DNA from: a virus
Taxonomy: Duplodnaviria > Heunggongvirae > Uroviricota > Caudoviricetes
Strand: one strand, 5' to 3'
Length of the DNA stretch: 5,399 nucleotides
IMG/VR virus record: IMGVR_UViG_2526164693_000018
Shown piece by piece: positions 1,092 to 5,399 of this stretch (position 1 is the first letter of the stretch; each line of letters opens with the position of its first letter). The notes beneath the pieces were generated by a model, which was given only the letters and a program-made list of their open reading frames with translations, was not told the DNA's origin and searched no databases. The translations under genes and the position numbers were made by a program.

Positions 1092-1808
<717 letters not shown>

Positions 1809-2182
1809 AGAGGATAGATGGAGTTTAATGGCCATGAGTATCAAGCGGTCAAAAAGAAGTTCATCTATTCATTGAAAGCATAAGGCCATCTGAGTATATC
1901 CGTAATGATCTGGATATTGTCTATAACATCAATGACCGGACGATAGATATCGGTGAGCAGCGTCCTGTATGGCAGGGTGAGGCAGGTGAAAAAACGTCCT
2001 GCCATCAACAAGAATCAAGTGCATCCGCTCTCTGGACAGATGGAAAATTTATTGGATGCAAAAAGATATGAAATAACACCTGTATAGCACGGAGCTTTCT
2101 CTGACCGATGCACTTGAAGTTGTTAGGGCTGACCCAGCCTGCTGTTTCTTTAGGTAAGAGAAAAGAGATTTAGGAGATGAAA

Positions 2183-2209
2183 GGTCGCAGAGGTGCGGCC
2201 TTTTTTATT
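2183..2209 (+). terminator. Intrinsic terminator-like hairpin: stem ggtcgca / tgcggcc (one G-U pair), loop gagg, followed by T6
   Basis: 7-bp stem at 2183-2189 and 2194-2200, then tttttt at 2201-2206. Plus-strand orientation, about 375 nt downstream of the cI stop. Confidence 0.6.
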
Positions 2210-2248
2210 GAGAGTGGATCTTGAACGGAAATTCTCAAGACTTGAGTC

Positions 2249-2277
2249 TTGCATGCAAATCAATTCCTGGATAAACT
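2249..2277 (+). promoter_or_regulatory. Candidate sigma70 promoter for the 173-aa ORF (-35 ttgcat 2249-2254, 17-nt spacer, -10 taaact 2272-2277)
   Basis: Hexamers with canonical spacing about 33 nt upstream of the ORF start, overlapped and preceded by dyad-symmetric motifs (ctcaagacttgag 2234-2246, ttgcatgcaa 2249-2258). Confidence 0.35.
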
Positions 2278-2309
2278 CGATCTGAGTCAATAACTTAGAG
2301 AGAGAGCAA

Positions 2310-2831
2310 ATGGCAAAGTCAAACGTTAGCGTGCAGGCATTCAAGGACTTCCTTGAAGAGCTTATGTCGCTGAACATAATGAAGGAGGCCACCGCTCGAA
2401 ATTTAAAAAACTCATCCGCTCGCCTCTTAACGGTAGTCCAAGAAGAGGAAATGGGTGATGTTACTCAGCTTGATGTGAATGAGCTTGCCGAGCGATACAT
2501 CAACGCAACTGAGCCGAAGCCTAGCGACAGCAGCATTACTGCATATAAAAGCCGCATGGAAAGTGCAATCAAAAAGTTTGTAGCTTTCCAGTCTGGTGAA
2601 GAAATCCCATACACTCCGATTGACAAAGAATCCAGTGAGGAAAAAGATTTGACTGGCGAACCAACAAAAGTCGAAGGCAAGGCTAATGCACTTCATACCT
2701 ATGATCTTCCAGTAGTTCTTCGACCTGAATCAGGGGTTACAGTAACGATTAAAGGCATTCCTAACGATATCACAAACGAAGAAGCCGAACGCATCTCTTC
2801 AATTCTGAAGGTTTACGTTCGGCCTCAATAA
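2310..2831 (+). CDS. Hypothetical protein (173 aa), acidic, no recognised domain; occupies the position of rexA/rexB
   Basis: Longest ORF in the non-lambda segment. Purine-rich stretch gagagagag at 2297-2305 precedes the ATG at 2310. Hydrophilic, net acidic by my count (about 29 D/E against 21 K/R), no obvious transmembrane segment. A promoter-like element lies upstream and a terminator downstream. Confidence 0.6.
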   Translation: MAKSNVSVQAFKDFLEELMSLNIMKEATARNLKNSSARLLTVVQEEEMGDVTQLDVNELAERYINATEPKPSDSSITAYKSRMESAIKKFVAFQSGEEIPYTPIDKESSEEKDLTGEPTKVEGKANALHTYDLPVVLRPESGVTVTIKGIPNDITNEEAERISSILKVYVRPQ

Positions 2832-3004
2832 TGCAAAAGCATTCAGCACAATGTCCAACTCCCCAGTCCGACATTGATGCTGTTTAACCAGAGCCTCCAA
2901 AAGGAGCCCTTGTTAAGGTACACAATATTTGCGATGTAACCTTAGCGCGTCTGGTACATTTTTTCAAGCGGTTGTAGGGCTGCCGCCAATATGAGAAAAC
3001 ACAG

Positions 3005-3127
3005 ATGTCTACATACAATTTGAATGACCAATTCGATCGAGAAGTTCATGTGAATGCCTATGAACGGATAAGGCATGGAAATCTTGAACATGTGTGTGAG
3101 CATTATCGCTCAAGGCCACACCGCTAA
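3005..3127 (+). CDS. Candidate small ORF (40 aa, MSTYNLNDQFDREVHVNAYERIRHGNLEHVCEHYRSRPHR), speculative
   Basis: ATG at 3005, stop taa at 3125-3127, ending 6 nt before a strong intrinsic terminator. Only a weak Shine-Dalgarno (gaga at 2993-2996). Below the length cutoff of the ORF track. The region could instead be a 3'UTR or sRNA. Confidence 0.25.
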   Translation: MSTYNLNDQFDREVHVNAYERIRHGNLEHVCEHYRSRPHR

Positions 3128-3132
3128 TCATC

Positions 3133-3161
3133 AACCCGGCCTCCATGCCGGGTTTTCTTTT
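3133..3161 (+). terminator. Strong intrinsic terminator: stem aacccggc / gccgggtt, loop ctccat, followed by ttctttt
   Basis: 8-bp GC-rich perfect stem (3133-3140 and 3147-3154) with a T-rich tail on the plus strand. The reverse-strand tail is less U-rich, so it is mainly unidirectional. Confidence 0.75.
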
Positions 3162-3341
3162 CCTCTCGCCCAAAAAAACACATAACCAATTGTATTTATT
3201 GGAAAATAAATAGATACAACTCACTAAACAACGCAATTCTGATCTCTCCTTACATCGCCGAGGCAATACACCCACGCTAAAAAACAATACTATTAAATAC
3301 AAAGCGTTGTAAAAAAACGCCCCGTTTTAGAACAAATTGTA

Positions 3342-3370
3342 TTGACCAAGTGAAGTACATATCGTACTAT
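3342..3370 (+). promoter_or_regulatory. Candidate pL-equivalent promoter (-35 ttgacc 3342-3347, 17-nt spacer, -10 tactat 3365-3370)
   Basis: Good -35 and moderate -10 with 17-bp spacing, about 45 nt upstream of a boxA-like element and 190 nt upstream of the N-like gene. A 5-bp-arm dyad agtac-N5-gtact (3354-3368) overlaps the spacer and -10. No lambda-type 17-bp OL operators are visible. Confidence 0.4.
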
Positions 3371-3415
3371 TTAACCATCAGCAGGACGCTGGAAGCCAAA
3401 TGGAACAGACTGGCA

Positions 3416-3461
3416 GGCTCTTTAAACAACGTCGACTCTCGACTACGTGGCTGAAAAGCCA
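3416..3461 (+). promoter_or_regulatory. Candidate nutL: boxA-like ggctctttaaacaa (3416-3429) and boxB-like hairpin tggct-gaaa-agcca (3448-3461)
   Basis: gctctttaa matches the boxA consensus (CGCTCTTTA; closer to the rrn-type TGCTCTTTAACAA). Downstream there is a 5-bp stem with a GAAA loop resembling a boxB hairpin. A second short hairpin gtcga-ctc-tcgac (3431-3443) lies between them. Located in the leader of the N-like gene. Confidence 0.5.
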
Positions 3462-3559
3462 GATCACCCAACCACATAAGCTGTGGGATGCAATGCCGAA
3501 GCAACCGTCTCAGGAGGAGCTTCGAGATTGCATCGCCAAAGTTTATTCGGGAGGAATCT

Positions 3560-3832
3560 ATGTCCAGAAAAACAGAATTTAAAGGCACCGCAGCTTCTCG
3601 CCGTAGAGCTCGTCGCGCAAACCTGCAAAGTCAGGAGGCGATTAGCTCCGACAAACTACACAGGCCAACCCCATCACGAGTGGTCTTACAATGCAAACGC
3701 AAACCAGCAATGAGAGCAGAAGTAATAACACTGACAACGTTGACCAGAAAATATGAAGGCTCAACTTGTCTTCCAAATGTAGCTCTTTACGCGGCAGGCT
3801 ACCGTAAATCCAAACAACTGACAGCAAGATGA
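3560..3832 (+). CDS. N: N-family transcription antiterminator (90 aa), P22 gp24 / phi21 N-like rather than lambda N
   Basis: Start chosen at the internal ATG 3560, preceded by gggagg at 3549-3554 (5-nt spacer). N-terminal arginine-rich motif GTAASRRRARRANLQ, typical of N-protein ARMs. The C-terminus LPNVALYAAGYRKSKQLTAR resembles the P22 gene 24 product as I recall it. Lies downstream of the candidate pL and nutL. Confidence 0.75.
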   Translation: MSRKTEFKGTAASRRRARRANLQSQEAISSDKLHRPTPSRVVLQCKRKPAMRAEVITLTTLTRKYEGSTCLPNVALYAAGYRKSKQLTAR

Positions 3833-3890
3833 CTTGTGTTGGTCGCCAGAAAATGAAATTAGGCAGCAAACCACTTATTTGAGGTGATAT

Positions 3891-4142
3891 ATGGAATTTC
3901 ATGAAAGTGCGATTTGTGATTTTCGCGCTAACGCAAATTCAGTAAAACCACAGCCAATTGCAGTTCTTTTTAAAACAATGGGTGCGTGGGCTGTTTTATG
4001 CTTCGCCGCTGACGACACTGACGCAAGAATGGCAATAGGACAAGAGATGGAGATGGACCCGACAAACGATGAATTCATAATTTATGGCGCTCCATCTAAT
4101 TACTTACTTGATACCTGCAACATTTACAACAAGGCTGCCTGA
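3891..4142 (+). CDS. Hypothetical protein (83 aa) in the position occupied by ral in lambda
   Basis: ORF with Shine-Dalgarno gaggtg at 3879-3884, 6 nt before the ATG at 3891. No similarity to lambda Ral that I can recognise except the C-terminal NKAA. Confidence 0.6.
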   Translation: MEFHESAICDFRANANSVKPQPIAVLFKTMGAWAVLCFAADDTDARMAIGQEMEMDPTNDEFIIYGAPSNYLLDTCNIYNKAA

Positions 4143-4278
4143 TGGTGGCCTTTATTTTTGGCATAAACAACAGAATAAACACAGCACTGTGTATTCATTC
4201 CAACGAGTGAATACACGGAGCAATGTCGCTCGTAACTAAACAGGAGCCGACTTGTTCTGATTATTGGAAATCTTCTTT

Positions 4279-4304
4279 GCCCTCCAATGTGAGGGCGATT
4301 TTTT
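4279..4304 (+). terminator. Intrinsic terminator-like hairpin: stem gccctc / gagggc, loop caatgt, followed by ga + T6
   Basis: 6-bp GC-rich stem (4279-4284 and 4291-4296) with tttttt at 4299-4304, located about 20 nt upstream of the 122-aa ORF ribosome-binding site. Analogous in position to tL1 downstream of N. Confidence 0.6.
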
Positions 4305-4324
4305 ATCTGTGAGGATATGAACAG

Positions 4325-4693
4325 ATGTCAAACATCAAAAAATACATCATTGATTACGACTGGAAAGCATCAATAGAAATTGAAATCGACCATGACGTAA
4401 TGACAGAGGAAAAACTTCACCAGATTAATAATTTCTGGTCAGACTCTGAATACCGACTCAATAAACACGGCTCTGTATTAAATGCTGTATTAATCATGCT
4501 GGCGCAACATGCTCTGCTTATAGCAATTTCAAGCGACTTAAATGCATATGGTGTTGTGTGTGAGTTCGACTGGAATGATGGAAATGGTCAGGAAGGATGG
4601 CCTCCAATGGATGGTAGCGAAGGAATAAGAATTACCGATATCGATACATCAGGAATATTTGATTCAGATGATATGACTATCAAAGCCGCCTGA
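4325..4693 (+). CDS. Hypothetical protein (122 aa) with acidic C-terminal region
   Basis: ORF with Shine-Dalgarno gagga at 4311-4315, 9 nt before the ATG at 4325. Asp/Glu-rich C-terminal half (DWNDGNGQEGWPPMDGSEGIRITDIDTSGIFDSDDMT). Not a lambda gene I recognise. Confidence 0.6.
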   Translation: MSNIKKYIIDYDWKASIEIEIDHDVMTEEKLHQINNFWSDSEYRLNKHGSVLNAVLIMLAQHALLIAISSDLNAYGVVCEFDWNDGNGQEGWPPMDGSEGIRITDIDTSGIFDSDDMTIKAA

Positions 4694-4765
4694 GCGCGGC
4701 GTTACCGCATACCAATAACGCTTCACTCGAGGCGTTTTTCGTTATGTATAAATAAGGAGCACACC

Positions 4766-4930
4766 ATGCAATATGCCATTGCAGGGTGGCCTGTTGCTGG
4801 CTGCCCTTCCGAATCTTTACTTGAACGAATCACCCGTAAATTACGTGACGGATGGAAACGCCTTATCGACATACTTAATCAGCCAGGAGTCCCAAAAAAT
4901 GGATCAAACACTTATGGCTATCCAGACTAA
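4766..4930 (+). CDS. cIII: CIII protein (54 aa), FtsH protease inhibitor that stabilises CII
   Basis: Translation [54 protein letters not shown] matches lambda CIII. Shine-Dalgarno aggag at 4755-4759. It is in a different frame from the 4773..5042 track ORF. Confidence 0.92.
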   Translation: MQYAIAGWPVAGCPSESLLERITRKLRDGWKRLIDILNQPGVPKNGSNTYGYPD

Positions 4931-5042
4931 ATTCACTATCGCCACTTTTATTGGCGATGAAAAGATGTTTCGTGAGGCCGTCGACGCTTATAAAAAATGG
5001 ATATTAATACTGAAACTGAGATCAAGCAAAAGCATTCACTAA
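4899..5042 (+). CDS. kil: Kil protein (47 aa), host cell-division inhibitor
   Basis: The internal Met of the 4773..5042 track ORF gives [47 protein letters not shown], matching lambda Kil. Shine-Dalgarno aggag at 4886-4890. Overlaps the cIII 3' end by 32 nt in another frame, as in lambda. Confidence 0.85.
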
Positions 5043-5116
5043 CCCCCTTTCCTGTTTTCCTAATCAGCCTGGCATTTCGCGGGCGATATTTTCACAGCTA
5101 TTTCAGGAGTTCAGCC

Positions 5117-5399
5117 ATGAACGCTTATTACATTCAGGATTGTCTTGAGGCTCAGAGCTGGGCGCGTTACTACCAGCAGATCGCCCGTGAAGAGAAAGAG
5201 GCAGAACTGGCAGACGACATGGGAAAAGGTCTGCCCCAGCACCTGTTTGAATCACTCTGCATCGATCATTTGCAACGCCACGGGGCCAGCAAAAAAGCCA
5301 TTACCCGTGCGTTTGATGACGATGTTGAGTTTCAGGAGCGCATGGCAGAACACATCCGGTACATGGTTGAAACCATTGCTCACCACCAGGTTGATATTG
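5117..5399 (+). CDS. ea10: Ea10-like early protein, N-terminal 94 codons; runs off the right edge of the window
   Basis: Translation [94 protein letters not shown] closely resembles lambda Ea10 from memory. Shine-Dalgarno aggag at 5105-5109. No stop in the window. Confidence 0.75.

Follow-up and report, generated by a model that had tools for sequence, protein, structure and literature searches.

In phage lambda, restriction alleviation maps to ral, and ea10 lies between ral and cIII. Ea10 is abundantly made from the leftward promoter pL and was formerly mistaken for Kil (PMC3961180), the gene is non-essential by CRISPR interference (PMC10695390), and the role of the protein has been described as "not fully understood" in a 2024 preprint (10.1101/2024.10.31.621285). 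The same preprint mapped to the lambda ral-ea10 region an Hfq-dependent small RNA (sRNA), LPR1/PreS, of ~88 nt, which is processed to ~68 nt and ends at the terminator tL2a. In lambda, PreS is expressed in the lytic cycle, raises dnaN translation and promotes phage DNA replication (10.1101/2024.10.31.621285), as summarised in a 2025 review (PMC12197685). Here we describe the corresponding part of a 5,399-nt stretch of virus DNA (IMG/VR record IMGVR_UViG_2526164693_000018), hereafter the window. As laid out from a listing of its open reading frames (ORFs) and from domain scans, the window is a lambdoid immunity and early-left region; coordinates are positions in the window, drawn along pL transcription. 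The interval 3891-4693 very probably represents the N-proximal part of a lambdoid pL operon and holds three known elements, namely an 83-aa ORF (ORF83), PreS with tL2a, and ea10. This content is ordinary for lambdoid phages, and all three elements are already in databases or the literature.

An initial annotation of the window had placed two ORFs in this interval, of 83 aa (3891-4142) and 122 aa (4325-4693). Both are present on the + strand as it described, with good ribosome-binding sites (the Shine-Dalgarno (SD)-like sequences GAGGTGA and GAGGA), and both lie downstream of N (3560-3832) and in the same orientation. Between 3480 and 5100 the window is 99.9% identical to VT2-Sakai (Sp5) and to many other Shiga-toxin (Stx) phages. 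The elements of the interval and its left border are as follows.

3832..3890, + strand: left joint of the cassette, a relic of a phage-21-type N 3' end (3832-3882), then the SD GAGGTGA
3891-4142, + strand: ORF83, 83 aa, ATG start, first gene after N; VT2-Sakai H0090 / orf20, RefSeq WP_000394299.1, phrog_2471
4131..4152, + strand: right joint, a terminator-like hairpin and T-run over the ORF83 stop codon (terminator scan)
4217..4304, + strand: PreS (LPR1) homologue of ~88 nt, assigned by identity to lambda, 5' end approximate
4277-4298, + strand: tL2a terminator hairpin (terminator scan), followed by TTTTTT
4325-4693, + strand: ea10, 122 aa, DUF2528, ATG start; protein identical to lambda Ea10

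Ea10 and the PreS/tL2a spacer

The 122-aa product showed 100% protein identity over 122 aa to lambda Ea10 in a tblastn search (V00638.1, many lambda records, phage 434 and others), and the VT2-Sakai copy is 99.2% identical to it. The ORF matched the Pfam family DUF2528 (PF10800) with 160.6 bits (cut-off 22; E 1.8e-47) over profile positions 1-104 of 104, and phrog_646 with an E-value of 3.8e-71. The gene order is the same as in lambda (slot gene, spacer, ea10, cIII with its Rfam thermoregulator, kil and gam), and GAGGA stands 9 nt ahead of the ATG. The initial annotation had called this ORF unknown, without a match to any lambda early-left gene, a description that fails for what is the named lambda gene ea10. 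It had also assigned both ORFs to the ral/sieB position; this was right for ORF83, which sits in the ral slot, but the 122-aa ORF is in ea10's own place, and no sieB was found in the window.

Ea10 is among lambda's last uncharacterised abundant early proteins. An AlphaFold2 (AF2) model built with 58 diverse homologues reached a predicted local distance difference test score (pLDDT) of 95.5 and a predicted template modelling score of 0.87, and the predicted fold has a beta-hairpin at its N terminus and a strand at its end, together with a helical bundle and a long conserved loop. In the alignment, E90, G91, P93, G97 and G100 are invariant and W92, M95, D96 and S98 near-invariant, and the EGWPxMDGSxG loop is an obvious candidate for the functional site. 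A BFVD search with Ea10 returned one family-like protein only, sequence and profile searches against the PDB gave no match, and literature searches combining Ea10 with "defense" found no functional study. Transposable, Mu-like prophages of Salmonella and Oceanobacter likewise have a DUF2528 gene among their early genes (L010/L011, 3501-3878; L012, 3501-3878), with transposase/MuB-like genes on one side and Mu Gam, GemA and Mor on the other, and tblastn detected the family in Burkholderia and Stenotrophomonas phages as well. Since temperate phages that are unrelated to one another retain the gene in their early operons, the simplest view is that its function is host-directed; Ea10 would most likely be a host-directed protein binder that acts via the invariant EGWPxMDGSxG loop, and not a single-stranded-DNA (ssDNA)-binding protein. 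A targeted Ea10 interaction screen is worthwhile because the protein combines a confidently predicted fold without a known relative, an invariant loop and homologues in Mu-like phages. P22 gp17 was considered as an Ea10 homologue and rejected, as the gene at that position in related loci belongs to a different family, Pfam GP17 (PF17420).

Two other functions have been attached to this protein. The initial annotation had noted its acidic C-terminal half and suggested a DNA-mimic, anti-restriction role. The acidity was confirmed, as Ea10 carries a net charge of -14 (pI 4.28), with -10 in residues 61-122 and -4 in residues 1-60, and a mimic would fit with its early and abundant expression in lambda (PMC3961180). 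The DNA mimics T7 Ocr and ArdA are likewise small, acidic and early-expressed, as are ORF83 (net -7 in 83 aa) and Ea10 (net -14 in 122 aa). The charge density of Ocr is much above that of either protein. Moreover, the protein is lambda Ea10 itself, and lambda, in which ral accounts for restriction alleviation, has ral next to ea10; the acidic residues also fall partly within the conserved loop motif and form no regular charge array in the alignment. Neither ORF was found to resemble the known Ocr/ArdA-like mimics, the charge geometry of the Ea10 model not having been computed. The DNA-mimic idea thus gained no support, and we regard it as very unlikely.

The second function is historical, in that many phage records annotate Ea10 as "single-stranded DNA binding protein" or "Ssb". 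However, the Ea10 model shows no OB (oligonucleotide/oligosaccharide-binding) fold and the protein matched no Pfam SSB or OB-fold family, its pI of 4.28 and net charge of -14 make ssDNA binding unlikely, its name in the NCBI annotation pipeline (PGAP) is now only "DUF2528 family protein", and the PreS preprint states that its role is not understood (10.1101/2024.10.31.621285). The inherited annotation is unsupported because there is no OB fold and no PDB or SSB match, in addition to the strongly negative charge. An ssDNA-binding Ea10 is therefore highly improbable, and the GenBank "ssb / single-stranded DNA-binding" labels on ea10 should not be propagated.

The 182-nt spacer between the two ORFs (4143-4324) is the lambda ral-ea10 intergenic region with 4 substitutions. 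Just one of these falls within the last 88 nt, in the loop of the terminator hairpin. The segment at ~4217-4304 folds into a 5' stem-loop and the terminator hairpin, with a folding energy of -30 kcal/mol and a z-score of -3.6. For LPR1 conservation, the preprint authors required an identity of at least 92%; the window spacer lies within this range and has the 3' GC hairpin and U-tract. A scan of the window against Rfam, which has no family for PreS, returned only Lambda_thermo. The PreS/tL2a content of the spacer had been overlooked in the initial annotation. A 51-aa ORF (4084-4239, + strand; "orf19" in RefSeq VT2-Sakai) overlaps the end of ORF83 and the PreS region; it is not called by PGAP in the E. 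coli genome that was checked and is likely to be a miscall in the sRNA/terminator spacer.

ORF83 and the slot between N and PreS

Among phage records, 57 contain ORF83, those of HK106, HK633, mEp234, Gally and two Salmonella phages of the P22-like type among them; so do 403 of 5,426 complete E. coli genomes, which always annotate it as "hypothetical protein". A search of 5.8 billion proteins yielded ~19 ORF83 clusters, all from Enterobacteriaceae where the source names the organism, with full-length members at least 70% identical. In the exhaustive HMMER profile search described below, two very large proteins also matched, P0139 (3,126 aa; E 2.5e-35) and P0140 (1,357 aa; E 2.6e-13), and were rejected as relatives. 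Both are giant tandem-repeat proteins, and the matches are a repeat artefact because their scores sum 44 and 12 weak per-repeat stretches, respectively. Literature searches with the ORF83 accessions and phrog_2471 returned spurious matches only.

The absence of a domain match (no Pfam family at E <= 1 and no NCBIfam match), the poor AF2 model described below and the overlapping and antisense ORFs in the interval might suggest that the 83-aa frame is open by chance or was annotated in error. Pairwise comparisons with the Citrobacter, Klebsiella and Salmonella-phage homologues already refute this: the ratio of nonsynonymous to synonymous substitution rates (dN/dS) was 0.08-0.14, and 40-43 of ~70 differences fell at third codon positions. 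Such strong purifying selection indicates that ORF83 is a genuine gene and not a chance ORF. In addition, full-length homologues at 70-84% identity occur without indels in four genera, and a strong SD (GAGGTGA) stands 3 nt ahead of the ATG. We consider the probability of a chance frame to be negligible.

The ORF83 product is acidic (net -7, pI 4.24), and its only conserved cysteines are C37 and C76. Residues 22-40 are hydrophobic, and a membrane protein was considered and rejected, as the homologues have D/E and G in the middle of this stretch (KGMDEW, KSYDGW). AF2 draws a beta-hairpin there, and the charged residues mid-stretch in the homologues argue for such a hairpin rather than a membrane helix.

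Comparison with lambda and phage 21 indicates that ORF83 is an exchangeable cassette, which replaces their orf28-ral between conserved joints. At the left joint, the stretch 3832-3882 reads TCVGRQKMKLGSKPLI-stop (translated by eye) in a frame that differs from that of the real N. Because the true N, which is of another type, ends at 3832, this phage-21-type N tail is a non-coding relic. Over 3832-3898 a single base separates the window from the phage 21 sequence in which N ends (...TCVGRQKMKLGSKPLI-stop) and GGTGATAT-ATGGAA follows; in phage 21, as in lambda, the latter is where orf28 has its SD and start. The left-joint segment is also found ahead of different cassettes in Stx2 phage I (933W-type) and in the IMG/VR prophage contig L022; its position before different cassettes in 933W-type phages suggests that the relic may serve as a recombination linker. 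At the right joint, the final codons of ORF83 (AACAAGGCTGCCTGA, compared with AACAAAGCTGCCTGA in ral) are again homologous to lambda, and this homology runs through the spacer into ea10. The homologues from Klebsiella and from Salmonella phage have an equivalent hairpin over their stop codon; lambda ral ends in one too, and another follows the cassette of L022.

Other genes occupy this slot elsewhere. In 933W-type Stx phages it holds a 156-aa HK97 gp45-like ORF (phrog_1636, function unassigned; L008, 982-1452), and in L022 a 207-aa protein with the Nmad5 "nucleotide modification associated domain 5" (PF18757, E 1.6e-71; 967-1587, - strand).

In the loci compared from other genera, ORF83 itself follows N in three (L004, L005 and L006), which carry different N families. 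It follows sieB, at the P22 ral position, in the P22-like Salmonella phage S9-5, and TerB-like and DUF3927 genes, where N would be expected, in L003. Since its downstream neighbours vary, ORF83 appears to stand alone and not to be part of a conserved pair. The N-to-PreS interval behaves as a bounded cassette-exchange slot.

Possible functions of ORF83

A terminator scan found no terminator-like site between N and ORF83, and for lack of an intrinsic terminator between them ORF83 is probably made together with N as an immediate-early product. We propose that ORF83 most likely acts on its own, as a soluble acidic protein that would bind and neutralise a host or resident-prophage protein. Judged by its position, the target might be a restriction or other defence system, a suggestion we make tentatively; the larger share of the weight goes to other host-takeover functions.

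A narrower proposal is that ORF83 functionally replaces Ral, as an early anti-restriction or anti-defence protein protecting incoming unmodified phage DNA. ORF83 does occupy the orf28-ral slot in both lambda-like and P22-like backbones, it comes first after N with no intrinsic terminator between them, and its product is small, acidic and stand-alone. Occupants of the slot elsewhere include Ral and Nmad5, so that 2 of the 4 known occupants are tied to restriction evasion or nucleotide modification. Conversely, ORF83 shows no homology to Ral: BLASTP gave no alignment, whereas lambda Ral matched PF11058 at 1.2e-47 in the same Pfam library, and ORF83 is without the clustered cysteines of Ral. PHROGs hold no anti-defence annotation for it, NCBIfam gave no match, and a search of PADLOC-DB at E <= 1 returned 0 families for ORF83, Ea10 and the 173-aa ORF described below. 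Position in a variable slot is also weak evidence, the HK97 gp45-like occupant being likewise without an assigned function. On balance, a Ral replacement is possible but doubtful. The anti-restriction or exclusion role that the initial annotation had proposed thus stands for ORF83 as far as position goes, with no sequence match or structural result linking it to restriction. Of the checks proposed there, structure prediction gave a confident model for Ea10 and one of low confidence for ORF83, for which BLASTP gave no alignment to Ral.

In a broader version of this proposal, ORF83 would found a new immediate-early anti-restriction/anti-defence family unrelated to Ral, neutralising host or prophage defence by direct binding, and the N-to-PreS interval would be a dedicated counter-defence slot, filled alternatively by Ral, Nmad5, the gp45-like protein or ORF83. 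We hold this, too, to be speculative.

Alternatively, ORF83 might modulate the phage's own early programme, such as the activity or stability of N or the lysis-lysogeny decision, and not host defence. It follows N in L004, L005 and L006 and would be transcribed together with it, and its neighbours in the pL operon include regulators of that kind, such as cIII. However, ORF83 is paired with unrelated N types (N_peptide and N36), and once with no recognisable N; because the associated N types are unrelated, a specific N partner is argued against. In lambda, phage 21 and 933W-type phages, moreover, the slot is filled by unrelated genes without a known regulatory role. An effect on the early programme is accordingly improbable, and we favour the binding of a host or resident-prophage protein.

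Several points weigh against our picture of ORF83 and its surroundings. Rho-dependent termination may occur between N and ORF83. An exhaustive HMMER profile search of 1.84 billion representatives found no distant relatives of ORF83 outside its own narrow family. Its AF2 model is poor (pLDDT 52), so that a fold search is uninformative. An O157:H7 SS17 prophage with the N-ORF83-ea10 block already encodes, within its nin region (L017, 453-689), a restriction-alleviation protein of the Lar family; ORF83 is thus not the sole anti-restriction candidate of this prophage, which weakens the case that it is needed as a Ral substitute. For PreS, expression from this phage would follow from sequence identity, its function having been shown in lambda only, in a preprint.

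As it stands, the finding matters little, amounting to one named lambda gene and one gene annotated as hypothetical in hundreds of genomes. ORF83 and the gp45-like protein are nevertheless reasonable candidates to screen for anti-defence activity in Shiga-toxin phages, since the occupants of their slot include known or suspected restriction-evasion genes.

Immunity region, flanking genes and comparison with known systems

The remaining features of the window are as follows.

cII, on the - strand
794-994, - strand: cro
1095-1808, + strand: cI
2310-2831, + strand: 173-aa ORF (VT2-Sakai H0093, phrog_2602), at the rexAB position
3005-3127, + strand: 40-aa ORF (VT2-Sakai H0092), at the rexA-rexB position
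3133-3154: pRM terminator
3342..3370, + strand: pL-like promoter (TTGACC, 17 nt, TACTAT; promoter scan), which drives the operon
3353-3366: non-lambda operator-like site AAGTACATATCGTA between the pL -35 and -10, matching the right operator (OR) of phage 2G7b
3560-3832, + strand: antiterminator N, 90 aa, H-19B/933W type (Pfam PF25694 N_peptide, E 3.4e-32)
4753-4811: Rfam Lambda_thermo, the cIII thermoregulator (RF01804; 88.5 bits), spanning the cIII start
4766-4930: cIII (Pfam Lambda_CIII)
downstream of cIII: kil, then the start of gam

In VT2-Sakai, the counterpart of the pL-like site is annotated as "major leftward promoter", and the counterpart of the window N gene is likewise annotated N. 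The 173-aa ORF, which is acidic and of unassigned function, and the 40-aa ORF fill the stretch between cI and the pRM terminator. Neither matched PADLOC or NCBIfam, and these ORFs at the rexAB position showed a weak, sub-threshold likeness to a phage-integrase SAM-like N-terminal domain (E 0.047). Prophages of lambda immunity and of Sakai immunity share the 173-aa gene.

Bases 1-1500 are 99.2-99.5% identical to lambda, including cII, cro, OR1-3 and the DNA-binding domain of cI, and bases 1398-5399 are 99.4% identical to the VT2-Sakai type. Judged from these identities the window is a hybrid, with the crossover near 1398-1500 in the shared C-terminal half of cI. Lambda-type operators were found at OR only (positions 1021, 1045 and 1068). 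None was found in the pL region (3290-3370), where the best score on a lambda-operator weight matrix was 3.2; on this matrix genuine operators score 12-24, and the maximum in shuffled sequence averages 10 and reaches up to 17.1. The 17-mer TACCTCTGCCGAAGTTG at 310-326, upstream of cII on the - strand in the O-proximal region, scored 14.2, in the range of weak genuine operators and within reach of chance. The repressor of phage 2G7b, whose OR the site within pL matches, is a different, 231-aa CP-933H-like CI, and O157:H7 SS17 has a CP-933H-like repressor beside the same ORF173-N-ORF83-ea10 block.

The combination of lambda cI with the Sakai pL was found in no phage record and in no complete E. 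coli genome. The junction of lambda cI with ORF173 is present in two IMG/VR contigs: L023, which has the same combination, being collinear with the window as far as ORF83 and differing from it at two bases of the pL region, and L022, which has normal lambda OL (left) operators. In a lysogen of the hybrid, pL and the genes under it (N, ORF83, PreS, ea10 and kil) might be repressed in trans by a further resident prophage; alternatively, the element may be defective, or expression may be leaky.

One of the closest known counterparts of the ORF83 locus is orf28-ral of lambda and phage 21, which is likewise bordered by the 3' end of N and by the PreS/tL2a spacer; Ral (PF11058) alleviates restriction by type I systems. 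ORF83 has the same SD and ATGGAA start as orf28 and the same last codons and stop-codon hairpin as ral. The two loci differ in that lambda has two ORFs, of 28 and 66 aa, and the window a single one of 83 aa. Neither Ral nor orf28 is similar in sequence to ORF83, the clustered cysteines visible in the lambda ral sequence have no counterpart in it, and no sieB lies between N and the cassette in the window. The gp45-like and Nmad5 cassettes have the same left joint as ORF83 and keep the PreS region downstream, although the proteins themselves are unrelated; the 933W-type phage has its right joint at a more downstream point, within the spacer. PreS likewise has a different upstream gene in the two settings, ral in lambda and ORF83 in the window. 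The window ea10 has the same position, upstream spacer and SD as lambda ea10, with no difference at the protein level and a few synonymous differences visible on comparison of the DNA.

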